Positions 2,191 to 61,729 are shown, counted from the stretch's first letter. The stretch is DNA of 64,000 nucleotides from Bdellovibrionales bacterium (GCA_965197425.1 CBDANC010000012.1:64001-128000); one strand, 5' to 3'. The notes: generated by a model not told the origin, from the sequence alone. A program made the numbers and translations.

Positions 2191-2333
2191 AAGGTCTTCC
2201 TAGCGAGGTCAATAAGGTGGGTTGGCGAAACGATTGCACTTTAGTGCAAGTGAAGCCAAAACATCTTTCAATAAAGGTGGGCGCCTGTTTCACCGAGTGG
2301 TTGCCCAGCTCCACACGTGTCATCAAACTCATC
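2191..2333. repeat. Family-1 mosaic repeat, locus A
   Basis: Begins AAGGTCTTCC. Its tail GCCTGTTTCACCGAGTGGTTGCCCAGCTC...GTCATCAAACTCATC is shared with 57644-57694. Confidence 0.9.
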
Positions 2334-2374
2334 ACAACAACAATTATTATATCCAAACAAATGACACTCAAGTG

Positions 2375-3643
2375 TTATTTTAACATTTTAGAGATCTGGG
2401 TAGCTGGAACTCGATCCTGCGTCATAGTATCTCTGTTTCTCACAGTGACCATCTTATCATTCAAGGTGTCAAAGTCTACCGTAACACAAAATGGTGTACC
2501 AATTTCATCCTGCCTTCTATATCTTTTACCTATACTGCCCGTATCATCATACTGAGTAGAAAAACTTTCAGACAATTCTTTATAAATATTTTGTGCTACT
2601 TCTATAAGCCCTGGTTTTTTCGAAAGTGGAAGTACCGCAACTTTTATCGGAGCAATGTCAAATGGAAACTTCATAACCACTCGAATATCGTCTGATAATT
2701 TCTCTTCGAAATAAGCGCTACATAAAATAGCCAAGACCAGTCTGTCACACCCAACCGATGTCTCCACAACATAGGGAACAAATTTAGTATCTTGATCTTT
2801 AAAATAACTGAAACTTTTTTTAGAAAACTCCTGGTGCTTTTTCAAATCATAGTCAGTTCTATTATGTATTCCCTCTAGCTCATGCCACCCAAATGGAAAT
2901 TTATATTCTATGTCACCTGCACTTTTTGCATAGTGTGCCAACTCATCTGGGCTATGTTCTTTAAATCTCAGCTCAAGCCCTAAAGCTTTATAAAAATCCA
3001 TTCTTATATTTTTCCAGTTTTCGAAAGATTTCTCATCGTTTCCAGGCTCTACAAAATATTGCATCTCCATTTGCTCAAACTCACGAGTTCTGAAAATAAA
3101 ATTCTCTGGTGTAATTTCATTTCTAAATGCTTTTCCTATCTGTGCAATTCCAAATGGTACTTTTAGCCTCATAGTTGTTCTGACATTTTCAAAATTAACA
3201 TATATACCCTGAGCAGTCTCAGGCCTTAAATAAATCTCCTGCTCCTCCAGAGGGCCCATAAATGTTCTAAACATTAAATTGAAATCACGCGGCTCGGTCA
3301 AATCCGAACTACCACAAGTAGGACACTTTTTATGATCTGACATATTATCTAATCTGTGCCTGGCCTTGCACCCCTTACACTGAACAAGTGGATCTGAAAA
3401 TCCATCAATGTGCCCTGAAGCCTTCCAAACAGTAGGATGCATCAATATTGCGGAATCTAAACCTACAATATCTATCCTGCTGGTCATAGAATCCCACCAA
3501 AGCTTTTTTACATTGTTTTTTAAATAAACTCCAATAGGACCATAATCATAACAAGCATTGATACCACCATAGACTTCTGAACTCTGGAAAACAAAACCTC
3601 TCCTTTTACACAGTGATATCAATGTCTTCATATTATCCAGCAT
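2375..3643 (-). CDS. glyQS: Glycine--tRNA ligase, homodimeric (alpha2) type
   Basis: [51 protein letters not shown]. Confidence 0.95.
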
Positions 3644-3736
3644 GTAACTATCTAATCCGTATAATCTCTATATTTCAAGATTTTTATAAAACGAAATATA
3701 CCCTTTATATCCTAGATGAGATAAAACACTTGGTGT

Positions 3737-4468
3737 ATGGATACAAAAAAAATTATTTTAGTAGCTTCAGGCAAAGGGGGAGTAGGCAAAAGCACAGTCG
3801 CTAGTTTACTTTCTGTAGCACTTTCTAAAAAAAATAAGAAGGTAGGCCTAATTGACTGCGACATACACGGCCCTAGTATACCCAGAATGTTTGGCAAAAT
3901 TAATAGTAGAATAACAGTAAAAGATAACAAAATGCTTCCCTTAGAACAATATGGCGTAAAGTTAATGAGTATAGGATTTTTGGTGGAAGAAACTAGCGCT
4001 GTGATATGGCGAGGACCTATGCTATTTAAAGCAGTAAGTCAGTTTTTTGATGATATATTATGGGGTAACCTGGATTATCTAATAGTCGATCTACCACCCG
4101 GAACAGGCGACATACAACTTACCATAGCACAAAAGTTCAAAGTATCAGGTGCAATAATAGTAACCACACCTCAAAACATTGCATTATCTGATGTAATTAA
4201 ATCAATAGACATGTTCAATACAGTAAAAATCCCTATCCTAGGTGTCGTAGAAAATATGTCCTATTTTCTATCAGATGAAAATAAAAAGTTAGAGCTATTT
4301 CCAAAAGGAAGTTTGAACAAATACCTACAAGAAAAGAATATCCATATTATTTCGCAAATACCATTCCTAAAAGCCATTGCACAAGGATCTGAAGTGGGTA
4401 TCCCCTACACACAATCCAAATCACTAGACTCGTTTGATGAAATTATAAAAACTATAGACAAAGTTTAG
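3737..4468 (+). CDS. mrp: Mrp/NBP35 (ApbC-like) P-loop ATPase
   Basis: SGKGGVGKST, DIHGPSIP, IWRGPM, DLPPGTGD, ENMS. Confidence 0.9.
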   Translation: MDTKKIILVASGKGGVGKSTVASLLSVALSKKNKKVGLIDCDIHGPSIPRMFGKINSRITVKDNKMLPLEQYGVKLMSIGFLVEETSAVIWRGPMLFKAVSQFFDDILWGNLDYLIVDLPPGTGDIQLTIAQKFKVSGAIIVTTPQNIALSDVIKSIDMFNTVKIPILGVVENMSYFLSDENKKLELFPKGSLNKYLQEKNIHIISQIPFLKAIAQGSEVGIPYTQSKSLDSFDEIIKTIDKV

Positions 4469-4473
4469 GCTTT

Positions 4474-4683
4474 GCCAGGTTGCCTGAATACCGAGCTACC
4501 TAAAATCTCTCAGGAACCACGCTATAAACAAAGTTTGTTTTCTATCTCTAAGGTATCGACAAAACAAAAAATTCTCGGGGGCCGGTTCTCTGCACAACTC
4601 TGATACTGAAAACACCTTTGGCTACATTTGGACTTCGTCTAAGCATTTCGCCAAGGCATTTTCAGCATCAGCGAAGGGCCTTT
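4474..4683. repeat. Degenerate mosaic repeat, locus B
   Basis: GCCAGGTTGCCTGAATACC nearly matches 39776-39794. The CTGAAA...CATTTCGCCA..GGCA..TTTCAG hairpin module is shared with 23630-23700. Confidence 0.75.
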
Positions 4684-8342: not shown

Positions 8343-9062
8343 ATGATATCATTGGTAATACCAGCATATAACGAAGAAAAAAGGCTTCCTAAATCAATAC
8401 AAGATTTTAAAAGTTTTTTTGCAAAATTAAATCTAGAAATAGAAATTATTATTATTATAGAAAAATCAAAAGATAACACTGTACAAATAGCAAAAAAACT
8501 TACCAATAATTGTAAGATGTTCAAAATCATAGCAAACGATGTACAGCTAGGACCTGGATATGCGATTAAAATGGGGGTAGATGCTGCCCAAGGTGAGTAT
8601 ATATTTGTAACCGATGCAGATATCCCTATCCCTCTTACTTATGTCTTAAAATTTTTGGAACATCTAAACTCAAACAAGGATATTGACATACTATTAGGTA
8701 ACAGGGCAATGGGCAAAACCAATACCAAAAACCCTTTTATAAGAAAGTGTGCAAGTAAAGTATTTAATATTTTGGTAAGAAATATAACTGGAATTACGGC
8801 GACTGATACTCAGTGTGCATTCAAAGCTTTTAGAAATAAAGCAGCTAAGAAAATTTTTGCACACATCAGATCCCATAATGCAGCGTTTTGTGTAGAAGCT
8901 TTAATGCTGGCTAAAAAATTTAACCTTAAATACGAAGAAGCGCCGGTTACATGGACACATAGTGGAGGTGGGTACATAAACCACATAAATATAATTTACC
9001 ACTCGACATCTATATTTACCTCAGTGATTAAGTCTTTTTTTAGGGTAAAGCTTTTAAAGTGA
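8343..9062 (+). CDS. GT2 glycosyltransferase (dolichyl-phosphate glucosyltransferase-like)
   Basis: ISLVIPAYNEEKRL, TDAD, DTQCAFKAF. Confidence 0.85.
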   Translation: MISLVIPAYNEEKRLPKSIQDFKSFFAKLNLEIEIIIIIEKSKDNTVQIAKKLTNNCKMFKIIANDVQLGPGYAIKMGVDAAQGEYIFVTDADIPIPLTYVLKFLEHLNSNKDIDILLGNRAMGKTNTKNPFIRKCASKVFNILVRNITGITATDTQCAFKAFRNKAAKKIFAHIRSHNAAFCVEALMLAKKFNLKYEEAPVTWTHSGGGYINHINIIYHSTSIFTSVIKSFFRVKLLK

Positions 9063-10430: not shown

Positions 10431-11042
10431 AAGGTCTTCCAAACTAAGGCAAAAACAAGTGGACTTGTTCACTTTTTTTGACTTAGTGGTTGCCCAGCTC
10501 CGGAACACGATGCCAATCCCGTCACTTAAGGTTTTCCAATGAGGCCGATAAAAGTTGATTGGCGTAGCAGATGTGCAAAGCACGAAGCGAAGCAAAGAAA
10601 CTTTTTTGGCCGAGTGGTTGCCCAGCTTTGGACACTGATGCCGATCCCGTCACTTAAGGTCTTCCGAATGAGGCAAATAAGGGAAGCTTTGCTTTCCTTG
10701 GTTCAATTGGCTTACGGGATAAACCTTTATATTATCCAATTGAAATAACCTCCCTGCGGTCGGTTTTTACCGAATGGCTGTTTCCTGGTGGACCTCACAG
10801 CTAATACTGTCACTATAAACTATTTTACATAACCTTAGGTTATTATTGCAAAATTCATCCATCTATGCTACAAAAGCACTCAAGACAATCAGCTCTACTC
10901 GCTTTACTTAAAAACCAAGAGTTACAGGATCGGCATCGTGTTCCAGAGCTGGGCAACCATCAAACTAAAAGATGTCTTGGCTACATTTGGACTTTGTCTT
11001 ACATTTCACCAATCTATCTTTTAGCTTGATTAGGAAGACCTT
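10431..11042. repeat. Family-1 mosaic repeat, locus C: three tandem units plus one inverted unit; contains the 66-bp element at 10698-10763
   Basis: Starts AAGGTCTTCC and ends GGAAGACCTT; GTGGTTGCCCAGC frame repeated. Confidence 0.92.
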
Positions 11043-11055
11043 ATACTTATTTTAT

Positions 11056-14000
11056 ATGTACATGTATTTAAACTTTACTTTTAGCCTAACTAGAAAAATA
11101 GCACCTCTGTTATTTTTTATTCTCTCCTTCACCAGTGGAGTATCCACCACCAGTGGAGTATACACTTCTGCTCATGCTCAACAAGGTCTAGGTGAATTTG
11201 ATACCTTCACAGATCCTAGTACAACTGATCTTAGATTAGCAGAAAATGCAGTATCTTCATGTGAGGTGTTACAGGAAGTTGCTAAAATTGAAGCAAACAG
11301 TCTATCTTCACAAGAATTTTTCAATAAACTACAAAAGACAGATTCTAATGGAAATTTATTAATTGATACTGAAGATTGTACTGAAAGCATACTTCAGTTT
11401 GTATCATCTCTATGTTCCTCTAATTCAAATACCAACAGGTCATTTTGTAACACCCTTGGCTTCAGTGTGGTTACACCACTCGTAGTGGATACTCCACTGG
11501 TGGTGGATACTCCACTCGTAAATATTAGTAATACTGGTGAAGGTGACTACAAATCTTATGGTAGTTCTGCCCTAGAGAGTTTAGATTTAAACAATTCCAA
11601 TGTTCAAGTTCAACATCCTGATAATAATCCCACATTATCTAACGAAGGAAGTTCTACATTTTCTATAGCAGGACTTCTTTTTTCATTTACTCCCATTAAA
11701 AGATTAAAACTAGCAAGAAACCTAACAAGATCAAACTTAGTAACCTCTAGGATAAAGCCTGTTTTAAATGGAGCTATGTTAATACTAGCTACACTAGGCT
11801 TATCTTCATGTAGTGATGTAACAGAGCCTGAGCCAGTCCCAATAGTAGAAACTCCCTGTACTAGAGGAGAATCAGGATATTTTCAGCTAACTGGTGGCAC
11901 TAACAGTGCTGGTGGTACTAACAGTGCTAGTAATTGCATACAGCTCATAGACCCTCCTACAGTTAGTTATCTTGATAGTGAAGGTAATGTTGTTACGAAC
12001 ACAAATGATATCTCAGATCATTCTATAAAAGTAACATTTGAAGAGCCTGTAAGCTTCATTAGTACAAGTGAGCATGGAAATCTAACTTCCGAAAATGTGG
12101 TTAAGATGGTTGATATAAAGTTAGGCAATGTAGATCTTTTAGATGTTGGATTTGTTTTTACTATAGAGGTTTCAAGTGATGAGGCATCTTTCACTCTGAC
12201 TCCGAAAACCACCTATCCTGCTGGAGATTATGTAGTTGGTGTAAGTAACTATGCAAAGAAGGCTGATATATCTAAGATAGCTGCTAGTACTAACAGAGCT
12301 CAGTATCTTAGCAGGGTTAATGATATGTCACAGTCTTTGTCTTCTTTCAATGTACACACCCCCTGCAGTAGAGGAGAGGAAGGTTATTTTGAGCTTCAAA
12401 ACTCAAGTGTTATGACGGATTGTATTAAGCTTACACTTCCTACTATTAGTTATCTTGATGAAGAAGGTAACACTGTAGAAGATACATCTACAATCTCAGA
12501 TCACTCTATAAAAGTAACCTTCGATGGGAGGGTCAGTTATATAGACTCTTCTCGTTATGAAGGTCTAACAGCGGCTTTTGCAAGAAACATGATAGAGTTA
12601 AACATAAACAGTGAGAATTTATTAACTGGTACTTTTAGATTTCAGATAGAAGCTGGAGTTGAAGAAGATGAAAGCTCATTTTTTATCTTAACTCCAATTT
12701 CAAGTTATCCTGCTGGAAGTTACTCAGTAAAAGTAAAAAACTATGTTAGCTCTTCAGATGCTTCAAAGATTGCAAATGCTACTAATACAGAAAACTATCT
12801 TGCACTAATCAACAAGGAATATTCTTCATTTTCAACACCTAATATTAGCACTCTGTGTGAAGAGAATGCTTCTGGATACTTTGAGCTAACAAATGAAAAT
12901 GGTTCGAAGGACTGCATTAGAATTCCTCAAGTGGTGTTTACTTTTACCCCTAGGGGTGGAAGAGAGATGATCGAGTCAAACTTTGACCCGACTTCAGTTA
13001 TAAAGATTTATTTTGATTTAGAGGTAGTGTATTTATCTGACTCCGGTGAGTGGCGAGAGATTACCAAGGAAGATATTTTAGAGATGGTAGAAATTTCTGT
13101 AAAACCTGAATACAGCTCAAGAAAGGTTGATCATGTGAATACGGATGGTGCTATAGGTTTGGACCTAGTATCGGTAAGTCATGTTGGAGGTAAGACTGTT
13201 ATTACCATAGATTCTCCTTATGATCACACACATGAAGATGGAAGGATCTATGGTTTTCATGTCCCTTATAATATTATAGTCACAAACTTTGCTAAAAAAA
13301 CTGATGTATCTAAAGTTGCAAGTAGTAGCTCTATTAACTCTTATTTAGAGGACACCGCAACCTTTTATCAAGGAATACATGGTGGGCTGTATAAGCCAAC
13401 CTCTTGTGATCTAGGATATGCACAATCTGCCGCAAATTATGATCAGTATAATGATGCAGAAGAGTTAGATCACTTTATATGTGAGACTGATAAGATGCTG
13501 GATACATTTTTACCTCCATCAGGAGACATTGCCTTTGATATGGCAATGTTCGATGCAAATAATGATGCTGATATGACTCACTTAGAAAAAACCGATCCTG
13601 GTACAAGGCATGTTATTGATCTTGCGTTTGTTACTTCGGATGTTCTTTTTGAAAATGCTAGTGGTGATTGGCGTACATATTTCGAAGATAAAGTTATTAA
13701 AGGCTTAAACAAGATGTTTCAATACTCCGGGGTGAATGTTGAATTTAGAGTTTCTGTGATTGGCCCTTTTTCTGATTATAGAGGGTATTTGTATTGTGAT
13801 CTCCCTACCATAGAAAACGTAGTTAACCCTCAAACTGGGCTTGGAAGCGAAGCACAAGCTATTTCAGAATTAATTCCGATCATTCGCAAAAAACATCCTG
13901 TTGATATATTTGTTGTAATGGTTCCATATGGTGGAGGATATGCGGTGATAGGTGATGGTCTTAGACACTTCCCTGTTTCAGCTAGATGGAGTTCTTCACT

Positions 14001-17700: not shown

Positions 17701-19310
17701 TCATCAGCAAAGGAACTAGGGTTGTTTACATCTCTCCAAACCTTACCAATATTCCTAAAGTTCAATGTCAATTCATCAGCATAATCACTAAGAGTAGTAT
17801 GAGCATTACCATCAGGCTTAGTAGGGATAGAATCAGCAGCACCATACTTATAACCAACATTTAAACCAGGGTTGTTTTGAAGAGGGTGAGTTGTGGAAGC
17901 TATAAAATCATTAGAACCATCTTTAATCTCTCTGTCATGGTGAACATATACAGGTCTTCTAGATGGAGGAACTGCAAAGCTGTTAGCATAAGCAAATAAC
18001 TTATTTGACTTACAGGATCTTTCTAACTTATCCACACCAGGTCTTGTTTTAACTTCAACAAATAACTTCAAACCTACATCTGACCTCATCTGGGCTGAAG
18101 TTAGACTCCTCTCCAGCTTATAACCAATCTTATTCTGTCTCTCTAATTCGTTGGTGCCTAAAACACTATCTGTAATGTATCTATCGTACTTAGAATGAGG
18201 TCTTAGAAAGACTGCTGGATGAACCTTAGTATCAGTACAACCAAGAGCACTACGATTAGATAAACTCCAAGGCCTTATACCTATCTTCACATCATATGGC
18301 TGAGCAGTATTAGTATAACTAGTACTATAATCAGTAAAACCTGCTAAGAGATGCAAATTTAAGGCATTTTTGAGACTCTTGGATAAACCATATAAGTACT
18401 CAGAGGTAAAAGTATCCCAAGCATAATGATTAGAAGATAAATTAGCATCAGCCATTTCCTTATAGTAATCAGGTTCAGGTCCTGGAGTTGCTGGTTTTAC
18501 ATCATCTAGCTTCTTATGTAAGTCTATCAGCTTAGCAGTGTTACCAGCCTCGTAGGTAATCACCATATCATCGGCAAGATCAAAGGTCAGGTTATCTACA
18601 TTAGATGGACATATGGTAGAACGATACTCGTTAAATAAATCTTCTACTAAACTAACACCACTACCTCTATGAAACTTATCTACTTTCAAAGTAATGTGAC
18701 TATTACTACCATGAGGCTCTATAACAAGATTAGGACCAGCATTATGAGTAGCCTCTCCACTAGTGTTTACAGATATAGTGCTTCTTTCTTCTATAGCTGC
18801 TTCAAAATCAGTAGGAGGAGTACCAGGAAAGTGTTCGGAGTTAAGCAAAACAATAGGTTCTAAGCCACCCTGAGAAAATCTCTCCATTACATTAGTAGCT
18901 ATAGCTGCACATTCATAGGAATCATCAGTCAACTTAGATGCCGTGTTCATCTGACCAGATATAAATGTAACTACAAAACCAGATATGGATACTAAAGCTA
19001 AACCAACTACAGTCTCTATTAAAGTAAAACCACCACCTTGCAGGTGGGGGCATTTACCACCAGTAGAGTACCCACCACCTTGCAGGCGGAGGCATTTTAA
19101 TAGAGGCTTAAACAAACTTTTATTCTGTTTGAAATATGCATTATTTAAACGTAACTTTAAACCTCTATGCGGAATTTTAGAGGGGGGGGGTACAGCTAAA
19201 TATTCGTTATTACTAGTGTTTTTAGTATTAGCTTCTTTATCAGCAACTCCACCAACAGCACTACTGTCAATACCCCTGTGAGAGTTTTTGTTTCGAAAGC
19301 CCCATCCCAT
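14709..19310 (-). CDS. Giant type IV pilin/pseudopilin-like protein with a long Cys-rich C-terminal region (start uncertain)
   Basis: G|FTLIETVVGLALVSISGFVV class III signal; dense Cys repeats over the C-terminal half; poly-Pro hinge. Confidence 0.8.
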   Translation of the reverse strand: MGWGFRNKNSHRGIDSSAVGGVADKEANTKNTSNNEYLAVPPPSKIPHRGLKLRLNNAYFKQNKSLFKPLLKCLRLQGGGYSTGGKCPHLQGGGFTLIETVVGLALVSISGFVVTFISGQMNTASKLTDDSYECAAIATNVMERFSQGGLEPIVLLNSEHFPGTPPTDFEAAIEERSTISVNTSGEATHNAGPNLVIEPHGSNSHITLKVDKFHRGSGVSLVEDLFNEYRSTICPSNVDNLTFDLADDMVITYEAGNTAKLIDLHKKLDDVKPATPGPEPDYYKEMADANLSSNHYAWDTFTSEYLYGLSKSLKNALNLHLLAGFTDYSTSYTNTAQPYDVKIGIRPWSLSNRSALGCTDTKVHPAVFLRPHSKYDRYITDSVLGTNELERQNKIGYKLERSLTSAQMRSDVGLKLFVEVKTRPGVDKLERSCKSNKLFAYANSFAVPPSRRPVYVHHDREIKDGSNDFIASTTHPLQNNPGLNVGYKYGAADSIPTKPDGNAHTTLSDYADELTLNFRNIGKVWRDVNNPSSFADDEEDFRGVFLCGFDKSSFEDCVKGPPDCDDIAGLSSYRPFGNGGVHKLGIRRSGTEYGSTDGSTSSPRWDLCENFKLTSSQPNRASLIASLSSVDDGKLGLELDNLNVSSWPDEDQDADYRVRFKLVDEYGNDYSATENGQIQSDDYTEEHRVFAYNCAQFGNTHASGIYATPPKNCGVTNPDPNIAKYNRRIDNPFYNARSDCEHTFNLLLGNGITNGTSSCVKLSNIRIYNNYFDDSIEERTGPANSPVRPVNGTGVTCDYWVEQCVNDGTACVQCGQGYMRDYPETTRQSCHGGSASLGGVTCYKAGVNCCSGVNNYNPFLCPTGGPCTNCSHPLDSLNRTVDRSCPSSVSCGFNEDPTCGATCNTNGLGCGICTGATPCNTPNCFSCSFGTPGVCQYKCGGGTPYCDGASNCVECLNDGHCGGDICCSYSCRAPCNASSNNCEECHGPCSSPVNRCSGGKVCDGSGGCVDPPPPPPPPPVCTPNPCPTGQTCCPDNQCRTNCCSVACDDDGDCNAGKTCQDAGQCSASCVTCVGGVGCNSDADCPGGVCQGAGNCGSSCCPVTCNSNSDCGAGKSCSDAGTCSSSCVDNPCPSGQVRCGAICKTPTCSGAGDCAVPTPTCQNPGTCTSICVTCSGAQPDCAATCQAVICGSGGWECDTSSGCPTGENCCTGVNPPVCKAPCVANNAACEQCADNCASPTSKCVPPQICNGSGTCYIPQTCGSRITDPECQQCTDPNSTTEIPRNKSGGCRSCGICNGGICNEPSTCPPCSGTPPTCDSDNCETAQCKNGSWVCEQGPSTCTANPATCTTCPKLCGTPVTGQPTCVSNTATCTTCDKPCGTPQTCPPGTTCDGSGGCVPVCSTPCSSNADCGCGGTCDAGTGCCTSTGPTCSGATPNCCPGSPPTCKASCGVTCGSGSMSGYPNTSDPSCNATSRSESGVECWTNTNCGATEVCDCCPWQCTEIRCENHHDCPTPYQCTVNVFDASMTGHCYTI

Positions 19311-21865: not shown

Positions 21866-22265
21866 AAGGTCTTCCGAGCGAGGCCAATAAAGTGAACTTG
21901 TTTGCTTTTTTCAATTGGCTCACGGGATAAATTTTTATATTTTCCAATTGAAATAACCTCCCTGCGGTCGGTTTTTTAATAAAGGTGAGGTTAATGAGGC
22001 CAAAAACAAAGTGACTTTGTTGCTTTTTTTTGGCCGAGTGCCTGTTTCACCGAGTGGTTGGCTTCATGCCCAGTACTGGGCAACCACAAGGCTTTGAAAA
22101 TAGGCAAAGCCTCCTTATTTTTTACCTCGTTCGGAAGACCTTATGGAACGGGATCGGAATCAGTGTCCAAAGCTGGGCAACACTGAGTTTAGAAGATGTC
22201 TTGGTTACACTTGGACTTTGTCCTGCATTACACCAATCCATCTTCTAGACTCATTTGAAGACCTT
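21866..22265. repeat. Family-1 mosaic repeat, locus D: head-to-head units; 66-bp element core at 21910-21971
   Basis: AAGGTCTTCC...GAAGACCTT inverted ends; modules shared with C, H, J, O. Confidence 0.92.
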
Positions 22266-22282
22266 GAGTATAATCATAAAAA

Positions 22283-23551
22283 ATGAAATTTAATCAAGTT
22301 ATACAATACATAGAAAACAAAGGCATAAGCCTAACTAAAGATAGAGTCCCTAGAAGATTAACCTTAGGCCCTATTAAAACTGCACTTAAAACATTAAACA
22401 TAAAACCTGCTTTAAATGGCGAAAGAGTAATACTAATTGCAGGTACAAATGGAAAAGGTAGTGTAGCCAAAACTTTAGAAACACTACTGACATCACAAGG
22501 TTTCAATGTAGGGTTGTACACTTCCCCACACCTGATATGCACAACAGAACGAATCTCAATAAATGAAAACCCCATAAGTAAGCAGCTATTTACAAAAACT
22601 TTCAAAGAAATAAAGAAAGCTATAAAAAACCTAACCCATTTTGAAATACTAACCTTAATAGCAGCACAAATATTTTTTAAAACAAAAAAGGTAGATTGGG
22701 CTATTTTTGAAATAGGACTTGGAGGTACAAAAGATGCCACAAATGCAATCCCTCATAAAACATCCATTATAACAACCTTAGGATACGACCACGAACATAT
22801 ACTGGGAAATTCTCTAGAAAAAATAGCCAAGAATAAATTTGGTATTATTAAAAAACACAACCTAGTAATTTCCAACAAATTACCAAAAGAACTAAAAAAG
22901 TTAAAAACAAAAATTTGTGACAAAAAAAAATGCAAATGGAAAATAAGCGATAAATTTCAATACAAAACAACAGTCAAAAAATTTAACCTCAATACAACAA
23001 TTACTATGTACAAGAAAAAATGCCCTTTAAATCTTCACTCAAAAAGAGGTGCCATGAATACGGCTCTAGCATTAACAGCTTTCAAACAACTTGGATTTAA
23101 CCCACAAGAACACATGCACAAACTAAAAAATGTAAATTGGCCAGCAAGAATGTCGGAACTTAAAATACAATCTCCATGCAAAATATATCTATCAGGAGAT
23201 CATAATGAACAAGGTATAAGAAGCTTGGTAGAAATTGTGCAACAATTTCGCTACAAAAATCTGCATATAGTTGCAAGCATAAGCAAAACAAAAAATCCAG
23301 ACAAAATTCTACCTATTTTATTAACACTAAAAAGATCTAACATTTTTCTGACCACAGCACAATTTATGGGAAGGAAAAAAGAAGAGTATAATAAATGGCT
23401 TACAAAAACTAGATATTATAAAAATCCAATCAAAGCACTAAAGAAAGCTCAAAGTATATCTAAAAAAAATGACCTAATAGTAGTAACAGGATCTCTATAT
23501 CTAATAGGAGATATTTTAGAGAAATACAGATCTAACATAGGAAGACTTTGA
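22283..23551 (+). CDS. folC: Folylpolyglutamate synthase/dihydrofolate synthase
   Basis: IAGTNGKGS, YTSPHL, EIGLGG..DATN, WPARM, TGSLYLIG. Confidence 0.92.
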   Translation: MKFNQVIQYIENKGISLTKDRVPRRLTLGPIKTALKTLNIKPALNGERVILIAGTNGKGSVAKTLETLLTSQGFNVGLYTSPHLICTTERISINENPISKQLFTKTFKEIKKAIKNLTHFEILTLIAAQIFFKTKKVDWAIFEIGLGGTKDATNAIPHKTSIITTLGYDHEHILGNSLEKIAKNKFGIIKKHNLVISNKLPKELKKLKTKICDKKKCKWKISDKFQYKTTVKKFNLNTTITMYKKKCPLNLHSKRGAMNTALALTAFKQLGFNPQEHMHKLKNVNWPARMSELKIQSPCKIYLSGDHNEQGIRSLVEIVQQFRYKNLHIVASISKTKNPDKILPILLTLKRSNIFLTTAQFMGRKKEEYNKWLTKTRYYKNPIKALKKAQSISKKNDLIVVTGSLYLIGDILEKYRSNIGRL

Positions 23552-23557
23552 GGTGCA

Positions 23558-23709
23558 GGATTGGCTGATTGCCTGATTGTCCGATTTCAAGTTAATGGAT
23601 CAGCATCTTGTTACAGTGCTGGGCAACTCTGAAACTGAAAGTACCTCGGCCACACTTGTGCTTCGCACAGCATTTCGCCATGGCAACTTTCAGTTCTTGC
23701 TGAGACCTT
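23558..23709. repeat. Mosaic repeat, locus E (8-mer GATTGCCT-like run plus a family-1 unit)
   Basis: GGATCAGCATCTTGTTACAGTGCTGGGCAAC...TTTCAGTTCTTGCTGAGACCTT; the tail is also at 51727-51753. Confidence 0.85.
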
Positions 23710-23714
23710 TAAAT

Positions 23715-29829: not shown

Positions 29830-30039
29830 TGGATCAGCTGCGAGTTCTATCAGGAACTTGAGTTGCTGGATCAGAATCGTGTCCAAAGCTGAACAACCTC
29901 TCAGATAAAAAACCGGCTGCAAAGGAGGTTCATCCAATTGGATAATATAAAGATTTATCCCGTAAGCCAATTGAACCAAAGTGAACAAGTCCACTACGAG
30001 TGGAGTATCCACTTGTTTTAGCCTCGTTTGGAAGACCTT
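29830..30039. repeat. Family-1 mosaic repeat, locus F, carrying a variant of the 66-bp element (29913-29979) and an 18-bp element (29995-30012)
   Basis: Aligns to 51762-51916 with an extra TACGAGTGGAGTATCCAC. Confidence 0.9.
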
Positions 30040-30045
30040 TAGTTG

Positions 30046-30631: not shown

Positions 30632-30742
30632 CTAAACCCTCCAAAGAGAAATTTCGAAAATTACTAAAAACTCTGACAAATAAAAACTATACAAAAGTAG
30701 TCTGATAAAACTTTCTCGGTATGTCAAACCTCTTTTTAATTA

Positions 30743-30820
30743 AAGGTGAGCTTAATGATAGCAAAAAGCGAACTTGTTTGCTTTTTGCTGAATGACTCTT
30801 TTCCCGTCACTTAAGGTGAG
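30743..30820. repeat. Short family-1 repeat, locus G
   Basis: AAGGTGAGCTTAATGA-hairpin-...TCCCGTCACTTAAGGT, as in C and J. Confidence 0.8.
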
Positions 30821-30943
30821 TCAGTTTTTGGAAGTGGCAGATATACTCTACGGTTTTGTAGAATCTTTAGTACCATGGCTTTTATGTGCTTGTGTTTTAT
30901 ATGCTTGTACTTTACATCAAAGTGGATAATATAGACCCTTTGT

Positions 30944-34385: not shown

Positions 34386-34711
34386 AAAAGCAAAGCTTCC
34401 CTTATTTGCCTCGTTCGGAAGACCTTACGGAACAGGATCAGCATCGTGTCCAGAGCTGGGCAACCACTCAGTCAAAAAACCGACCGCAGGGAGGTTATTT
34501 CAATTGGATAATATAAAGATTTATCCCGTGAGCCAATTGAACCAAAGTGAACAAGTCCACTTATTTTTGACTTCGTTCGGAAGACCTTACGGAACAGGAT
34601 CAGCATCGTGTCCAACGCTGGGCAACTATCAAGTTAAAAGATGTCTTGGTTACATTTAGACTTCGTCTTACATTTCACCAATCTATCTTTTAACTTGATT
34701 AGGAAGACCTT
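34386..34711. repeat. Family-1 mosaic repeat, locus H: tandem units; 66-bp element at 34480-34545
   Basis: GGAAGACCTT three times; ACGGAACAGGATCAGCATCGTGTCCA twice. Confidence 0.93.
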
Positions 34712-35372: not shown

Positions 35373-35547
35373 TCGTGTCCAAAGCTGGGCAACCACTCAG
35401 TCAAAATAAGTGAACAAGTCCACTTATTTTGACTTCGTTAGGAAGACCTTATGAAACTGGATCAGCATCGTGTTACAGTGCTGGGCAACCATTCGGATAA
35501 AAAAGTAGGCGAAGCCTCCTTATTTTTATCCGAATTCAGAAGACCTT
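35373..35547. repeat. Family-1 mosaic repeat, locus I (two units without inserts)
   Basis: GCTGGGCAACCA(C/T)TC-hairpin-GAAGACCTT twice, with different hairpins. Confidence 0.92.
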
Positions 35548-39110: not shown

Positions 39111-39111
39111 C

Positions 39112-39351
39112 AAGGTCCATTAACGAACAGCAAATAATTCTGGCTCCGCCAGATTTTTGCTGTGAGTGACTGTTCCCTGGTGGACCTCACAGCCGATCCA
39201 GTTCCACAAGGTCTTCCGAACGAGGCAAAAACAAGGAGGCTTCGCCTACCTTTTTTGCCAAGTGGTTGCCCAGCTCTGGAACAAGATGCTGATCCCATTA
39301 CTAAAGGTGAGCTTAATGAGGCTATGCCTGTTTTGATCCGGCATTCCGGGA
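39112..39351. repeat. Family-1 mosaic repeat, locus J (left of the four-helix-bundle gene)
   Basis: Three successive AAGGT-starting units with different hairpins. Confidence 0.9.
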
Positions 39352-39720
39352 TCATGTATTTTTCCATAATTGGTATAGAAAGCCTCCTAGCACATCTGCC
39401 TCTTCTATTAGTTCTTTGTGGTCTATGAGATCTAGTATAGCTTGCGTTTCTCTGAGCGAGTCTAAGCTTATTGCATAGAATCTTTTTCTATCTTTTGCTG
39501 TAGGTTGGTTCAATTGGCTCACGGGATAAACCTTTATATTTTCCAATTGAAATAAACTCCCTGCGGTCGTTTTTGCACTTCCCTCCGCAAGGTTAAGTAG
39601 AACACTCAAAGTAGCTCTTTGGAATTGGTTTTTGAGGGGTTCTTTTAGCCAAAGTTTTTTTGATTCTCGATAAAACTCTTTAGCTATTTGGTATGTTTTT
39701 AATTTTTTTGGAAAAATTAA
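39352..39720 (-). CDS. Four-helix-bundle protein (23S rRNA IVP/Avd-like fold) with a 22-aa in-frame insertion; start unclear, possibly a pseudogene
   Basis: LKTYQIAKEFY...LKNQFQRATLSVLLNLAEGSAK[insert]PTAKDRKRFYAISLDSLRETQAILDL. Confidence 0.8.
   Translation of the reverse strand, partial: LIFPKKLKTYQIAKEFYRESKKLWLKEPLKNQFQRATLSVLLNLAEGSAKTTAGSLFQLENIKVYPVSQLNQPTAKDRKRFYAISLDSLRETQAILDLIDHKELIEEADVLGGFLYQLWKNT
39505..39570. mobile_element. 66-bp palindromic element inserted in frame in the four-helix-bundle gene
   Basis: Absent from the paralog at about 54626; the same unit occurs at seven intergenic sites. Confidence 0.92.
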
Positions 39721-46317: not shown

Positions 46318-46575
46318 AGGTCTTTCCCGGAATGACCGATTGCCCGACTGCCTGATTAGATCTGGGATCTGGCATTCGGGGATCCGTTACCTGCATCCGC
46401 CACCAGGCACCTGTTTGCCAGATTGCCCGATTGCCTGACTGCCAGAATAACCGTGCCGTAGGCACAAACACATGCACCCGTAGGGTGCCGCCTTGCAGGC
46501 GGAGGCATTTAATGGTGGTTGAACATACACCGTGTTCTGTATTTCACCAGCCAAATACCTGCACCCGTAGGGTGC
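46318..46575. repeat. Family-2 mosaic repeat, locus K: 7/8-mer runs, four-helix-leader segment, GCACCC-GTA-GGGTGC hairpins, 24-bp unit at 46487-46510
   Basis: Shares long segments with 61530-61729 and 47478-47590, and in reverse with 39720-39794. Confidence 0.9.
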
Positions 46576-47432
46576 TAGTCTCTTTGTCCGAATCTTAGTT
46601 TTGATCTTAGTATTTCTAGTTGATTGGTATTGTGTGGTAGTAGCATATGGTGAAATTTATTTGAATGTTTGATTAAAATTTTATCTTTGTATGTTAAGTC
46701 AATTTGTCTGTATCCATCTATCATAAAGATAGCTTTTTGTTTTTCTTGTGTTAATTGAATTTGTATTTGGCTGGTATCTGGTATTGTGAGTGGTCTATTT
46801 GTTAGGCTGTGTGGGCAAATAGGTGTAATTACGGTTGCTGGTATTTCTGGGGTTAGTATAGGTCCTCCTGCTGATAGATTATAGGCAGTGGAACCAGTTG
46901 GAGTGGCCACTATTAAGCCATCTGCTTTCAGATCACAAAGCAAGGTATCATCTATTTTGATTGCCATGGATATAAGTCTACTAAAGCTACCTCTTTCAAA
47001 CACAATATCATTTAGAGCCAAAATTTTTCCATTACTGAATTTATCTTTAGAATTTATTAGGCTAATTTCTAGCATTGAGCGTTTGGATACAACAAGTTTA
47101 CCTTCTAATGCCTCAGTGATTACCTTAATTAAATTGTCTGATCTAGCTTGAGTTAAAAAACCTAAGGATCCCATGTTAATACCCAGAACAGGTATTTGAG
47201 TGTGAAATCCAAGCATTCTTACGGCATTTAGGTAGGTACCATCTCCACCTAATACTACAACAAGCTTAAGTTTTAGCAAAATTTTGTCAGTAAGTTTGGC
47301 AGTATCTTTAAGAGGGGTTTGTTCAGGATGATGATAACAAGTACAGCCTTTATTACTAAGCCATTTAACTATTTCAAAGGATTTATCTAAAACCTCAGGT
47401 TTATTGGGTCGGTATACTATCGCAATGTGCAT
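46575..47432 (-). CDS. nadK: NAD kinase
   Basis: LGGDGTYL, GINMGSLGFL, ALND, DGLIVATPTGSTAYNLSAGGP. Confidence 0.95.
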   Translation of the reverse strand: MHIAIVYRPNKPEVLDKSFEIVKWLSNKGCTCYHHPEQTPLKDTAKLTDKILLKLKLVVVLGGDGTYLNAVRMLGFHTQIPVLGINMGSLGFLTQARSDNLIKVITEALEGKLVVSKRSMLEISLINSKDKFSNGKILALNDIVFERGSFSRLISMAIKIDDTLLCDLKADGLIVATPTGSTAYNLSAGGPILTPEIPATVITPICPHSLTNRPLTIPDTSQIQIQLTQEKQKAIFMIDGYRQIDLTYKDKILIKHSNKFHHMLLPHNTNQLEILRSKLRFGQRD

Positions 47433-47477
47433 AAAAATCCACTAATACACCAATTATAAAAACACAACCTTTTTATA

Positions 47478-47590
47478 CCACCGCCCTACAGACGGAAGTA
47501 TTTAATAGTGGTTGCACACACCACATTTCGTATTTCACCAGTTAAACACCCATACCCGTAGGGTGCTAGTCACCGGCACCCGTAGGGTGT
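47478..47590. repeat. Family-2 mosaic repeat, locus L
   Basis: Degenerate 24-bp unit at 47480-47503, GTATTTCACCAG, two CCCGTAGGGTG hairpins. Confidence 0.85.
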
Positions 47591-51672: not shown

Positions 51673-51699
51673 AGCAACTTTTATCGTATTATACCTACA

Positions 51700-51916
51700 A
51701 AGCTGGGCAACTCTGATTTCGCCTAGGCAACTTTCAGTTCTTGCTGAGACCTTGTGTGGAAGGATCAGCATCTTGTTCTAGTGTTGGGCAACCACTCAGT
51801 CAAAAAACCGACCGCAGGGAGGTTATTTCAATTGGATAATATAAAGATTTATCCCATGAGCCAATTGAACCAAAGTGAACAAGTCCACTTGTTTTTGACT
51901 TCGTTCGGAAGACCTT
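51700..51916. repeat. Family-1 mosaic repeat, locus M (66-bp element at 51808-51873)
   Basis: Near-identical to 34436-34588. Confidence 0.93.
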
Positions 51917-54500: not shown

Positions 54501-54780
54501 AGGTCTTCCGAGTACATCTGCTTCTTCTATAGGGTTTTTGTGGTCTATGAGATCTAATATAGCTTGTGTTTCTCTTAGTGAACCTAAGCTTATTGCATAG
54601 AATCTTTTTCTATCTTTTGCTGTTGGCTTTGCACTTCCTTCTGCAATATTTAGTAGAATGCTCAAAGTAGCTCTTTGAAATTGATTTTTGAGCGGTTCTC
54701 TCAGATAAAGGTTTTTTGAGTTTTTATAAAACTCTTTAGCCAGTTGGTATGTTTTTAATTTTTTTGGAAAAATTAGGGAT
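54499..54780 (-). pseudogene. Second four-helix-bundle gene, 3'-truncated by a family-1 end
   Basis: Closely matches 39352-39720 without the 66-bp insert; after ADVLG the sequence switches to GGAAGACCTT. Confidence 0.75.
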
Positions 54781-57463: not shown

Positions 57464-57466
57464 ACC

Positions 57467-57932
57467 AAGGTTTTCCTAACGAGACCAATAAGGCGAACTT
57501 CGTTTGCCTTTTTTCAATTGGTTCACGGGATAAATCTTTATATTATCCAATTGGATGAACCTCCTTTGCAGTCGGTTTTTTCAATAAAGGTGAGGTTAGC
57601 GAACAGCAAATAAATCTGGCTTTGCCAGTTTTTTGCTGTGAGTGCCTGTTTCACCGAGTGGTTGCCCAGCTCTACACATGTCATCAAACTCATCTCCACT
57701 GAGGGTATCGTAATATGATTTGCTTTAAAACTCAAGCACTGACCCCCACTTGCCAACAAAGTGAACTTGTTTGCTTGGTTCAATTGGCTCACGGGATAAA
57801 TCTTTATATTATCCAATTGAAATAACCTCCCTGCGGTCGGTTTTTGGCCGAGTGACTGTTTCCAGGTCTAACTAAGGCTAGGGAACTTTCATATTTCACC
57901 AATTCATCTTTTAGCTTGATTAGGAAGACCTT
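57467..57932. repeat. Family-1 mosaic repeat, locus O (66-bp element at 57775-57840, variant core at 57513-57575)
   Basis: AAGGTTTTCC...GGAAGACCTT inverted ends; modules shared with A, D, J. Confidence 0.92.
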
Positions 57933-59542: not shown

Positions 59543-59554
59543 AGTTTAATATCT

Positions 59555-60523
59555 TTATCTTCTAACTGTTCTTTTTATATTGTGACAAGCTGCTTTTTGT
59601 TTAAAGATTCTAAGCTGTGGCTCGGTTAACTTGCAAGTTTCAGTGACCAATGGACATCTAGGATGAAAACTACATCCACTTGGAGGATCAAAAACAGACG
59701 GTAGTTCTGTTTGAAACAAAACTCTCTTTTTTGTATTTTTATGTTTAATCTGAGGATTACTGGATAGCAAAAGTTGTGTGTAGGGATGAAGTGGGTTGGA
59801 AAAAATATCATCTGCTTTTCCATGTTCTACAACTTTTCCTAAGTACATAACTATAACCACATCAGCAATGTGCTTAACCACGGAGAGATCGTGGGATATA
59901 AATATGTAACTAAGCCCCATACTATCTTGCAAATCCATTAACAAATTTAACACCTGAGCTTGTATTGAGACATCAAGTGCACTAACAGGTTCATCACAAA
60001 TTAATATTTTAGGTTTTAGTATTAATGCTCTGGCAATACCAATTCGTTGTCTTTGGCCTCCACTTAGCATATGTGGATATCTGTTCCTATATTCTTCACC
60101 TAAACCCACCAATTCCATCGTTTCTATACTGCGATCCAGACAATCTTTGGTGGGCATATTAGTATTTAACAAGGGTTCACTTATTATCTGCCATACTTTT
60201 TTTCTTGGATTAATGGAGCTGTATGGATCTTGAAAGACAATCTGAATATGTTTACTAAGTTCTTTTTTAGTTAATGTTGAAATATCTATGGGTTTGTCTT
60301 GATATACCATGCATTTACCTTGAGTCATAGGTTCAATACCCATAATTATTCTGGCAAGAGTACTTTTACCACACCCACTTTCACCAACAATTGCAACTGT
60401 CTCACCTTTATTTAGATTGAAGGTTACACCATCCACAGCTTTCAGGCTTTTTTTAGATCTTAAAAAAAGCCTTGATAGTTTATAGTGTTTTTTTACATCA
60501 CTAACAGATAATAATTGCTTCAT
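59555..60523 (-). CDS. dppF: Dipeptide/oligopeptide ABC transporter ATPase
   Basis: GESGCGKST, LSGGQRQR, DEPVSALDVSIQAQ. Confidence 0.9.
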   Translation of the reverse strand: MKQLLSVSDVKKHYKLSRLFLRSKKSLKAVDGVTFNLNKGETVAIVGESGCGKSTLARIIMGIEPMTQGKCMVYQDKPIDISTLTKKELSKHIQIVFQDPYSSINPRKKVWQIISEPLLNTNMPTKDCLDRSIETMELVGLGEEYRNRYPHMLSGGQRQRIGIARALILKPKILICDEPVSALDVSIQAQVLNLLMDLQDSMGLSYIFISHDLSVVKHIADVVIVMYLGKVVEHGKADDIFSNPLHPYTQLLLSSNPQIKHKNTKKRVLFQTELPSVFDPPSGCSFHPRCPLVTETCKLTEPQLRIFKQKAACHNIKRTVRR

Positions 60524-60532
60524 ATAAAAACC

Positions 60533-61510
60533 TTATGAAATTGGAAAATAGCACTTAATCAGTCTACCATTTTCTATGGTGTCAGGTGGATTTTTTGATG
60601 CACAAATATCTTTTGCGTATTCACATCTAGGATGAAACTGACAACCGCTAGGTCTATCCACCAAATCAGGCACTGTTCCCTTTATACTATTTAATCTCTT
60701 ACTTGCTTCTAACTGAAAACCCGGCAAAGATTTTAACAAGCCAATTGTGTAAGGATGTCCTGGGTTAAACAATAATTGATGTCTTAAGCCAGACTCAACT
60801 ATATGACCTGCATACATAACCTGAATTCTATCAGCTACTTCAGATGCTAAGCTAATATCATGGGTAATAATAATAAGTCCCATTTTGTACTCTTTCTGAA
60901 TTTTTTTAAGCAAGGAAATTATTTGAGATTGTATTGTTACATCCAATGCAGTGGTAGGTTCATCGGCAATTAATAGCTCAGGGCCGGCTGCCATTGATAT
61001 AGCGATCATTATTCTCTGACTCATTCCACCAGACAACTGATGAGGAAAAGCTTTAAGCCTCATTGCTGGATCAGGAATTCCAACTAAGGTTAAAAGCTCC
61101 AAAATTTTTTCTCTTCTCTGCTTTTTATCTAAAACTCTTCCTTTTTTGTCTTTGATATTATGGGTTCTTAGTACTTCATCTATCTGAAATTCAACAGTGA
61201 AACTAGGATTTAAACTGGTCATGGGGTTTTGAAAAACCATAGACATTCTTTTGCCTCTTAATTGTCTAAACTCCTCACTACTAATGTCCAACAAATCTAT
61301 ACCATCAAATAATAGTTTATCTGCCTTTACCCTGGCATTTGAGGGTAATAGACCCATAATGGCAAGACTAGTAAGACTTTTACCGCAGCCACTTTCACCC
61401 AAAAAACCCAAAGTTTCAGATCTATCCAGCTTAAAACTAACACGATCAACAGGCCTGATACGACCTCTCAAAGTCTCAAACTCAATAATTAAATTTTCAA
61501 CCTCTAACAT
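60533..61510 (-). CDS. dppD: Dipeptide/oligopeptide ABC transporter ATPase
   Basis: GESGCGKS, PHQLSGGMSQR, DEPTTALDVTIQ. Confidence 0.9.
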   Translation of the reverse strand: MLEVENLIIEFETLRGRIRPVDRVSFKLDRSETLGFLGESGCGKSLTSLAIMGLLPSNARVKADKLLFDGIDLLDISSEEFRQLRGKRMSMVFQNPMTSLNPSFTVEFQIDEVLRTHNIKDKKGRVLDKKQRREKILELLTLVGIPDPAMRLKAFPHQLSGGMSQRIMIAISMAAGPELLIADEPTTALDVTIQSQIISLLKKIQKEYKMGLIIITHDISLASEVADRIQVMYAGHIVESGLRHQLLFNPGHPYTIGLLKSLPGFQLEASKRLNSIKGTVPDLVDRPSGCQFHPRCEYAKDICASKNPPDTIENGRLIKCYFPIS

Positions 61511-61529
61511 TTTTTTATAGCCCCTCTGT

Positions 61530-61729
61530 CCAACTACCCAACTGCTTGATTAGATCCGAGATCTGGCACTCAGGGATCTGTTATCTGCATCTGGTATCCG
61601 CCACCAGGCACCTGTTTGCCAGATCACTGACCCCGAGCCCGTTTAATCTAAAAACATACATCATATTTTGTACTCCACCAGTTAAATACCTGCACCTGTA
61701 GGGTGCAAATACCCGCACCCGTAGGGTGC
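61530..61729. repeat. Family-2 mosaic repeat, locus P (inside the dpp operon)
   Basis: ATCCGCCACCAGGCACCTGTTTGCCAGAT shared with K; two tandem 23-bp AAATACC(T/C)GCACC(T/C)GTAGGGTGC units. Confidence 0.9.

Follow-up and report, generated by a model that had tools for sequence, protein, structure and literature searches.

Nested hairpin units of 18 and 66 nucleotides in the spacers and protein genes of a Bdellovibrio-like bacterium

Introduction

The spread of REP- and RPE-type palindromes still lacks an agreed explanation. Fungal double-hairpin elements are grouped with GC clusters as very short palindromic units that are not known to have a transposase of their own. The RPEs of Ogata et al. 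(2000, 2002) are about 105-150 bp long, and REP dimers or groups within genes code for 20-30 residues, as described in the accessible portions of PMC10969869, PMC3184786, and PMC3733652. The GTAG before a REP hairpin is the tag read by TnpAREP, and IS200/IS605 transposition is strand-specific (PMC8266576, in part). REPtrons can be lost (PMC3733652, in part). An 18-nt mobile subunit was proposed for yeast mitochondrial GC clusters in the accessible text of PMC4478555.

The window analyzed here is a 64,000-nt stretch of a Bdellovibrionales genome (GCA_965197425.1, CBDANC010000012.1:64001-128000). The organism is uncultured and Bdellovibrio-like, and its 99%-complete assembly is termed G000. G001 is a sister species, and the two are near-complete small genomes. 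A first-pass annotation of the window proposed a hierarchical system of nested 18-, 24-, and 66-bp palindromes, mobilized in trans, that enter both spacers and proteins. A literature search, with subscription journals largely outside its reach, found no paper on the 18-nt (M18) or 66-nt (M66) elements or on repeats in this lineage.

Results

Four hairpin families share one genome

Module motifs were counted across G000 and in one dinucleotide shuffle. The per-module counts were 3-170 versus 0-8 in the shuffle. The earlier description of 16 mosaic intergenic loci in the window was confirmed; 13 are AAGGT-anchored (2191, 4478, 10431-11042, 21866, 23567, 29868, 30743, 34417, 35384, 39110-39329, 51702, 54500, and 57466) and 3 are GTAG-REP-like. 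Four hairpin families occur in G000: M18, M66, tandem spacer units of 93-128 nt, and a GTAG-REP-like family. The modules are real and they nest, with M18 in hairpin H1 and in the 24-mer and M66 in spacer hairpins and a four-helix-bundle gene. The proposed hierarchy did not hold to the same extent; several families share one genome rather than forming one proven hierarchy. Over 22025-29946 and 32288-34413, contigs of run X2 show 0 differences from the window, which argues against misassembly, and X2 may be the source sample and hence not an independent strain.

The recurrent 24-bp unit was recovered as the end of a longer GTAG-REP-like hairpin element, and its spacing in one spacer is 23 bp (61683/61706). 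This family is the source of the 23/24-nt unit and is found with 8-nt tandem repeats at 46338..46590, in a copy overlapping a gene end at 47470..47590, and in a copy at 61560..61730 whose two end units are spaced by 23 bp.

Spacer arrays have one fixed and one variable end

The 93-128-nt spacer units are not frame-preserving. Among 52 unit lengths, just 11 are divisible by 3. The earlier description gave three module lengths (18, 24, and 66 bp), all multiples of 3; of the units found here, only those of 18 and 66 nt preserve frame. Plus-strand arrays lie at 2191..2333 (anchor, long hairpin, C, and F tail), 30741..30826 (a short array), and 39112..39330 (abutting the four-helix gene). Minus-strand arrays lie at 4478..4682 (degenerate, R type), 23540..23709 (R type), 29868..30040 (with M66 at 29912-29977 and M18), 34387..34711 (three units upstream of proS, M66 at 34478-34543), 35373..35547 (two units, empty H1 site), and 51693..51916 (M66 at 51806-51871). 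Arrays face each other at 10431..11042 (M66 at 10700-10765), 21866..22266 (M66 variant at 21908-21973), and 57468..57932 (two M66 copies, upstream of acnA). In a close relative, the anchor of the arrays before acnA seems to be followed by a different module. In most arrays only one end has the AAGGT anchor. Where two arrays face, the anchors are inverted, and inspection of these by eye revealed no target duplication.

The spacer units have a diverged homologue in G001 at other places. Array positions common to both genomes number 4 in 757 spacers (p = 0.057), and the G001 spacer orthologous to 34387..34711 is about 31 bp. Each array has a fixed anchor end and a variable opposite end, and 34 of 136 intergenic arrays start no more than 15 nt after a same-strand stop codon. 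Both features would suit movement through an RNA copy, made by a reverse transcriptase that a phage supplied or that the lineage has lost. We regard this as improbable. A reverse transcriptase was not found in G000, an Rfam scan matched nothing but tRNAs, M18 lies both ways in genes (25 sense, 24 antisense), and target duplications are absent.

M66 enters spacer hairpins and a four-helix-bundle gene

M66 is a 66-nt double hairpin, with 37 full copies, that sits in the four-helix gene and, across several spacer hosts, in seven spacer-hairpin contexts. Filled and empty sites within the window, noted earlier for both the 66- and 18-bp modules, were confirmed at the named sites. M66 fills 34478-34543 and is missing near 35400 in the same host hairpin. 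It also fills 39507..39572 (plus strand), in frame in a four-helix-bundle gene at about 39352-39700 on the minus strand that lacks its native start. The site is empty in the minus-strand paralog at 54507..54780, which has no native start, a 7-nt tandem arm upstream, and a 3' end fused to an AAGGT anchor.

Of 19 four-helix paralogs, 5 have M66, always at the same position, and monophyly of these five was rejected (AU p = 1e-4). Three of the copies are identical (66/66) in hosts that are 78-83% identical, and there are differences within 15 nt of the junctions. The two other four-helix copies are closest to spacer copies. A metagenome scan for M66 gave 2 matches in an unrelated 52%-GC genome, which were judged to be chance. 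The four-helix protein was considered as the mover and rejected. G001 has 0 copies despite 24 array matches, so the gene is not needed for spacer arrays, and at 9 of the 19 loci the interval between flanking orthologues contains no array motif. The four-helix gene is a target rather than the mover.

M18 is a constrained 18-nt hairpin found mostly in genes

G000 contains 59 non-redundant M18 arrays with 97 units, 60 of them distinct. A structure-based pattern found 83 copies in G000 and a single one in G001, and three shuffles gave 0-1. A degenerate pattern found 84 in G000; in 250 further genomes of the phylum no genome had more than 8, and a reversed control pattern gave similar counts there. 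In contig scans, the exact tandem pattern had 0 matches in genome contigs and the single unit had 0 in viral contigs. The degenerate tandem pattern matched at least 113 genome and at least 6 viral loci; among the matches listed, both stems were paired in 2 of 128, and the better of the two (L295) is the lone array in its genome.

Stem covariation was scored over the 97 units. One pair is T-A in 81 and C-G in 12, and another is A-T in 80, G-C in 4, and T-A in 4. A sub-family of 8 arrays has different stems with the loop and tail unchanged. The M18 hairpin is under constraint, and its stem is kept through compensatory changes.

Genes hold 49 of the 59 arrays in a genome that is ~87% coding by our own ORF calls, and M18 shows no depletion there. 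M18 adds 6n residues to ProS, TyrS, GlnS, FumC, citrate synthase, GcvP, ObgE, and RecX, and ThiB is a further protein with an in-frame palindromic repeat. The first-pass annotation had listed in-frame copies in proS, a metzincin gene (zinc-protease-like below), the giant pilin, and the four-helix-bundle gene, and each of these was upheld, as was the remodeling of proteins by the modules. The proS copy (33487..33504, minus strand) adds six residues, VETPPV by alignment, that are absent from 12 of 12 homologues. The zinc-protease-like gene (10972-14574, motif HExxHxxRxxH) has two units antisense to the gene at 11130..11165 (minus strand) and three sense units at 11467..11520 (plus strand), compared to 0 or 1 in near-identical paralogs. 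The leader of the giant prepilin contains two 24-nt units (19032..19097, minus strand) with M18 at their junction (19058-19075), before the G|FTLIE site. Outside genes, M18 is nested in the spacer-array hairpin H1 at 29995..30012 (minus strand), and H1 is plain elsewhere.

Frame filtering is seen directly in the counts. The three sense frames hold 18, 7, and 0 arrays and the antisense frames 5, 7, and 12; the sole unused frame is the one with a TAG stop. Gene copies survive because both lengths, 18 and 66, divide by 3 and a stop is present in only one of the six M18 frames.

Tandem arrays of 2-4 units, which run head-to-tail, make up 23 of the 59, and a tandem array in one relative differs by one unit. 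Local slippage or protein-level repeat expansion would produce such arrays, and misassembly could mimic them. This explanation is barely credible and is already contradicted as regards dispersal. The same DNA unit is found in five frames, on both strands, and in dozens of unrelated genes. Single copies account for 36 of 59 arrays, and neighboring units differ (1 of 38 adjacent pairs is identical). Separately assembled contigs agree, and other assemblies have the same inserts.

M18 sites are filled and empty between relatives

Orthologous sites were compared with G001. The length difference is an exact non-zero multiple of 18 nt at 12 of 19 alignable sites; the remaining 7 are inexact multiples of 18, one of them without any insertion. 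Across 794 orthologue pairs, extra segments of 6, 12, and 18 codons number 23, 7, and 2 in G000 versus 3, 0, and 0 in G001. Closer relatives were sought for 26 proteins; the collection included 13 of these, and a full-length relative was available for 6. M18 is missing from close relatives at 2 of 6 tested sites, ProS and an S8 protease, and the expected presence/absence polymorphism is supported; the other 4 sites are common to relatives, so most M18 insertions are not very recent. An X1 contig across the proS insertion (33196-33781) is shorter by 18 letters. The relative without M18 in the S8 protease has an extra sub-family unit elsewhere. A search with GcvP homologues found no close strain.

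M18 sites have a weak target motif that resembles the start of the unit

Target bases were counted over the 59 arrays, with expected values corrected for codon position. G is at +4 in 43 arrays versus 12.0 expected, an excess present in each frame class, and C is directly upstream in 1 array versus 9.4 expected. No consistent target duplication was found in M18 flanks. The target consensus resembles the first six bases of M18. GTAG arises at 29 of 38 M18 junctions and is also seen in the 23/24-nt family; single M18 copies lack such a tag on the 5' side of the hairpin. With leading-strand calls that are rough, M18 has no replication-strand bias (15 versus 21, p = 0.41), nor do M66 and the AAGGT anchor, and module C gave the sole such signal among five tests (p = 0.03).

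The usual candidate movers were not found in the assembly

Pfam scans covered 49 window ORFs and 23 proteins. The Y1 transposase/RAYT family (PF01797) had 0 members in G000, G001, and G002, and spacer arrays are present in both G000 and G001, though neither has a Y1 enzyme. Searches of G000 for a reverse transcriptase, IS110, a tyrosine recombinase, and GxxExxY were each negative. A Y2 search of G000 was also negative, and it weighs little since its control gave no signal. No small (Ssn-type) GIY-YIG protein was found in G000 or its family; the only match was UvrC-sized (612-653 aa). None of the G000 proteins without a G001 match fit a simple HUH pattern. The partner enzyme suggested earlier (Y1/RAYT, a reverse transcriptase, or a free GIY-YIG nuclease) is thus absent from the 99%-complete assembly, and mobilization in trans is unproven.

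A small HNH gene beside a repeat-bearing gene was rejected as a candidate; it is conserved in four relatives, and the flanks inspected in three of the four show no repeats. G000 has an IS1634 gene and an IS1595 fragment, and no modules were seen by eye in their flanks. The flanks of the G004 TnpA, also compared by eye, do not resemble the modules.

Candidate mechanisms

Our working proposal, held tentatively and at somewhat less than even confidence, is that M18 and M66 are pasted in as single-stranded DNA by a trans-acting, hairpin-reading HUH enzyme of the Y1/RAYT type that is absent from the assembly. Each 18- or 66-nt insertion would be an exact unit placed at a weak target motif by a putative single-strand cut-and-join step. 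In its favor are the exact unit lengths, the lack of consistent target duplication, the target signal, stem covariation, filled and empty sites, frame filtering, and the GTAG at M18 junctions. The start of M18 fits the target motif, and an element could therefore insert in front of itself to build mixed arrays. The larger spacer units would likely also swap modules through recombination between copies. Several observations run counter to the HUH proposal: no Y1 in three genomes, no M18 strand bias, the missing 5' tag of single M18 copies, the little room that 18 nt leaves for two IS200-type ends, the 4 of 6 sites common to close relatives, the 7 of 19 sites that are inexact against G001, and the spread of M66 among homologous spacer units, which could be gene conversion. 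The contigs examined contained no excised circle or junction read.

The same data could be explained by host repair and replication enzymes that capture short hairpin oligonucleotides at nicks or stalled forks, with no dedicated transposase. A variant invokes template switching and very short gene conversion, with the target motif as microhomology to the element start. We consider host capture possible but rather doubtful. Every dedicated candidate searched is absent from G000 (the Y2 search having no positive control), the target resembles M18's first six bases, there is no strand bias, spacer mosaics are joined at short shared words, and 33-nt halves of M66 can duplicate alone. Yeast mitochondrial GC clusters behave alike with no known transposase of their own, as far as the accessible text of PMC4478555 goes. 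Two points speak against host capture. The insertions measure exactly 18 or 66 nt at sites that are unrelated and have no more than 1-3 constrained target bases, and compensatory stem change is better explained by a catalyst that reads structure than by capture at random.

A more specific reading is that M18 is a complete mobile element, a closed single-stranded dumbbell with a self-matching target, moved by an enzyme outside the recognized transposase families. This is unlikely on present evidence. The predicted circle would consist of a 5-6-bp stem with a 3-nt loop at either end. Folded as a circle, the M18 consensus is more stable than shuffles (z about -5 to -6), and the pair needed to close the second loop has no covariation (p = 0.27).

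Discussion

This lineage is an unusually clean case of palindrome spread, with an 18-nt unit, a countable target motif, stem compensation, filled and empty alleles, and frame filtering in the counts. Here selfish DNA adds loops of six residues to tRNA synthetases and to enzymes of the TCA cycle. The usual movers are missing from two near-complete small genomes, which makes the catalyst search a bounded task. If the dumbbell reading were true, M18 would be about the smallest bacterial mobile DNA and would keep supplying essential enzymes with six-residue loops. The hairpin units, the 18-nt one among them, are likely among the smallest mobile DNAs known.

Comparison with REP/BIME/REPIN elements (accessible parts of PMC8266576, PMC3733652, and PMC3116915) reveals short hairpins and intergenic mosaic tandem clusters as likenesses. 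The GTAG tag gives a mixed picture, as it occurs at M18 junctions and within the 23/24-nt family and is missing 5' of single M18 copies. The differences are that G000 and G001 have no RAYT, and that M18 is head-to-tail instead of in inverted doublets and mostly genic (49/59) instead of extragenic. IS200/IS605-derived MITEs share the lack of target duplication and a short target motif (exact 18n, G at +4 for M18). They differ in that M18 has no strand bias, on rough replichore calls, and G000 has no cognate TnpA IS. A classical TIR MITE differs in that the anchor here is mostly at one end and no target duplication is seen.

The modular arrays, in which one end is fixed and the internal modules vary, resemble, by description, pneumococcal BOX and neisserial intergenic mosaic elements (PMC3184786, in part), but no cognate IS was found here. 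Ssn-related motifs and the CGTC REPs with SsnA are likewise single-strand hairpin repeats in small genomes (PMC11893778, in part); by gene content, G000 differs in having no small GIY-YIG ssnA gene.

Yeast mitochondrial GC clusters (GC42, GC18) are, in the accessible text of PMC4478555, organellar and located mostly between genes, and they target AG and show co-conversion tracts, whereas the present elements are bacterial and mostly in proteins, with no duplication seen. The likenesses are very short palindromes, presence/absence, constrained stems, units that merge into larger clusters, and the lack of a transposase of their own.

RPEs are, like the present elements, palindromic non-coding DNA located in frame in unrelated metabolic genes, species-restricted, and with no dedicated transposase shown. 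Length sets the two apart, with units of 18 and 66 nt rather than about 100-150 bp, and M18 further differs in adding 6 residues, using five frames, forming mixed arrays, and having a measurable target motif. The mechanism is unproven, and by this comparison the elements are a new, very small version of RPE/REP-type coding palindromes.

Genome setting and reality of the mosaics

The source assembly (G000) spans 1.60 Mb in 15 contigs, is 99.4% complete and has a GC content of approximately 35%. The window carries ordinary Gram-negative housekeeping genes; genes outside it were called by our own ORF script and are approximate. The first-pass annotation described 16 spacer loci in the window as hairpin mosaics, and all 16 were recovered, 13 in one family and 3 in another. 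Genome-wide, the module motifs occur 3 to 170 times each versus 0 to 8 times in shuffled sequence, and 132 clusters contain at least two module types. Contigs from sequencing run X2, which may be the source sample, are identical to the window at 22025-29946 and 32288-34413 (0 differences), which argues against misassembly. By eye, a short ORF at 30447-30631 of the minus strand resembles translation initiation factor IF-1. Likewise by eye, a protein on contig C9 resembles a piggyBac-type transposase and contig C10 seems phage-like; either contig may be contamination of the bin.

An 18-nt hairpin unit resides in frame within genes

The 18-nt unit, M18, consists of a 5-bp stem, a 3-nt loop and a 5-nt tail. 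The stem covaries across units, and a sub-family of 8 arrays has other stem letters with the loop and tail kept. Counting each set of paralogous copies once leaves 59 arrays (36 single, 12 double, 7 triple and 4 quadruple; one is a false positive without a length difference relative to the sister species, G001) that hold 97 units, 60 of them distinct. A structure-based pattern matches 83 copies in G000, 0-1 in shuffled sequence and 1 in G001. G000 has 33 copies of the exact consensus, which is absent from 383 other genomes of the order. A degenerate form occurs 84 times in G000 and, at background level, no more than 8 times in any of 250 other genomes within the phylum. Separately, a Deltaproteobacteria MAG contains three 18-nt units in tandem that share the M18 build, with a paired stem and the same loop and tail type (L295; JACQOY010000047.1, ~8698-8750), in what by eye resembles the terminal part of a DNA polymerase III alpha gene. 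This is the only such array found in that genome.

Genes contain 49 of the 59 arrays, and the named hosts include ProS, TyrS, GlnS, FumC, citrate synthase, GcvP, TopA, ObgE, RecX, ThiB, DeoC, NusB, SecF and a CoaB-like protein. The three frames are used 18, 7 and 0 times in the sense orientation and 5, 7 and 12 times in the antisense orientation. The unused frame is the one that bears a stop codon, an outcome with a chance probability of ~1e-4 if frames are equally likely.

M18 sites follow a target rule and are empty in some relatives

Alignment to G001 was possible at 19 M18 sites. The length difference is 18 nt or an exact multiple of it at 12 of these sites, takes another value at 6 and is zero at 1. 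Across 794 orthologue pairs, extra segments of 6, 12 and 18 codons number 23, 7 and 2 in G000, only part of which are M18, and 3, 0 and 0 in G001. The M18 flanks contain no consistent target duplication. At 43 of 59 sites (12.0 expected by codon position), and at 34 of 50 once flanks resembling another unit are dropped, G is the fourth host base downstream; the host base upstream is almost never C. The first bases of M18 itself match this target motif, and only 1 of 38 pairs of neighboring units is identical, which favors repeated insertion rather than recent slippage as the origin of the arrays. Slippage or artefact as the explanation of the repeats as a whole is highly improbable.

The expected presence/absence polymorphism among relatives was observed, with M18 missing at two of six tested sites. 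A contig from a separate study (X1, ~97% identical) aligns 568 letters over 586 proS bases; its 18 gap letters probably correspond to a missing M18 insert, although the alignment table does not give the gap position. The S8 protease of a relative (92% identical) lacks six residues present in G000 and has six extra sub-family residues elsewhere. The inserts in GlnS, ThiB, NusB and RecX are retained in relatives. Within G000, near-identical protease paralogs differ at one site in their number of units (0, 1 or 3). The window gene at 10972-14574 has the zinc-binding motif HExxHxxRxxH, and two paralogs have the usual glycine.

Spacer arrays are built from exchangeable modules

The spacer-array units are intergenic and repeated head to tail. 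Each begins with a fixed AAGGT anchor. An exchangeable hairpin, of which there are several, comes next, then the conserved word GTTGCCCAGC and finally a tail, which also exists in several versions. Unit lengths are mostly 93-99 or 121-128 nt, or ~152-164 nt when the unit holds the 66-nt double hairpin, M66. Only 11 of 52 lengths are divisible by 3, so the divisibility by 3 that the first-pass annotation saw in its three module lengths does not extend to these units. The DNA of one array had no real match in 30 relatives, and the G000 modules were not found in G001, which has a diverged unit of its own with the same layout. A shared form of the anchor and word pattern matches 46 times in G000, 24 times in G001 and 0-1 times per genome in 278 others of the order. 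Across 757 syntenic spacers, 68 hold an array in G000 but not in G001, 12 show the reverse and 4 have one in each genome. In a close relative, 10 of 11 residues in the N-terminal extension of aconitase (P0005) match what the anchor and a different module would encode when read antisense; at the protein level, this suggests that the site may hold other array contents than in G000. A further module of ~65 nt, mostly behind the anchor, is present in many spacers and within one four-helix gene (C13:84827). G001 also has a CRISPR array (L067, from ~9200; 36 copies of a 36-nt repeat) and, elsewhere, a 1028-aa HNH-bearing ORF; no such array was seen among the frequent words of G000.

M66 has 37 full copies in eight classable host contexts (2 unclassed), preceded by TT in 33 and followed by TT in 34. 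Its halves, ~33 nt each, also occur alone or doubled. Among its host hairpins, H1 is filled in 14 cases and empty in 17, and H2 is filled in 11 and empty in 34. Of the 19 four-helix-bundle paralogs, 5 also carry M66, all at the same position, and a single clade of these five was rejected (AU p = 1e-4). Three of the inserts share one sequence, and their hosts, at 78-83% identity, diverge within 15 nt of the junctions; spacer copies are the nearest matches of the remaining two. These sequence relationships imply that M66 was gained independently three or more times, or spread by very short conversions.

Pilin leaders and four-helix genes

The 24-bp unit of the first-pass annotation does repeat at 24 nt in pilin leaders, but its spacing in a spacer is 23 nt and it forms one terminus of a larger GTAG-REP-like hairpin element, whose pattern matches 29 times (0 in shuffled sequence). 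An M18 is nested at the 24-mer junction in a pilin leader. Type IV pilin processing removes the leader at the prepilin cleavage motif; the inserts lie upstream of this motif and therefore would be absent from the mature protein. Giant pilin leaders also contain poly-C tracts of variable length (window 19186-19195 and paralogs on C14, C15 and C6), and the copies on C15 and C6 are out of frame with the upstream start.

The four-helix genes of G000, 19 in number, belong to a distinct cassette that has short tandem arms. For 11 of these 19 loci, no more than 205 bp separates the flanking genes in G001. Copies are patchy across the order, with 0 in G001 and 14 and 19 in relatives G002 and G004. The four-helix gene is not a plausible mover; here it is a target of M66 and one further module. 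A different long hairpin repeat family surrounds four-helix genes in G002 (L131-L136) and G004 (L124-L130), and two G002 copies interrupt the gene itself.

Insertion mechanism

Several features point to HUH-type single-strand cut-and-join as the insertion chemistry, as in REP/TnpAREP and IS200/IS605 (PMC8266576): units of exact length, flanks free of duplication, a short motif at the target, a hairpin under constraint and GTAG at junctions. A lost or transient HUH-type enzyme would cut and join the units as single strands, a model we favor tentatively. Searches of G000 for Y1, reverse transcriptase, IS110, tyrosine recombinase, GxxExxY and small GIY-YIG genes found none, and the mover anticipated by the first-pass annotation (Y1/HUH, GIY-YIG or reverse transcriptase) was not recovered. 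M18, M66 and the anchor show no replication-strand bias. Spread of the units by host repair or template switching is rather unlikely, and spread by an RNA route is more doubtful still. Tyrosine recombinases (PF00589) number 0 in G000 and G001 and two each in G002 and G004; XerC/XerD are therefore apparently missing from the first two. Another relative, G003, has two RAYT-sized Y1 genes (L147, L148), each with its own flanking palindromes that by eye are unrelated to the G000 modules.

Comparison with known systems

A literature search found no description of this hairpin element. In-frame palindromes as such are an already known kind. M18 works like Rickettsia palindromic elements (RPE) and intragenic REPs, but it departs from them in size, arrangement and partner gene, and a single M18 lacks the 5' tag; GTAG does form at 29 of 38 M18 junctions. 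In their way of working, the spacer arrays resemble BIME/BOX mosaics. The nearest analogue of M18 in size is the yeast mitochondrial GC cluster, within which an 18-nt subunit has been proposed (PMC4478555). The novelty lies in how small the unit is, in its target rule, in the five frames it uses and in the empty sites seen at strain level.
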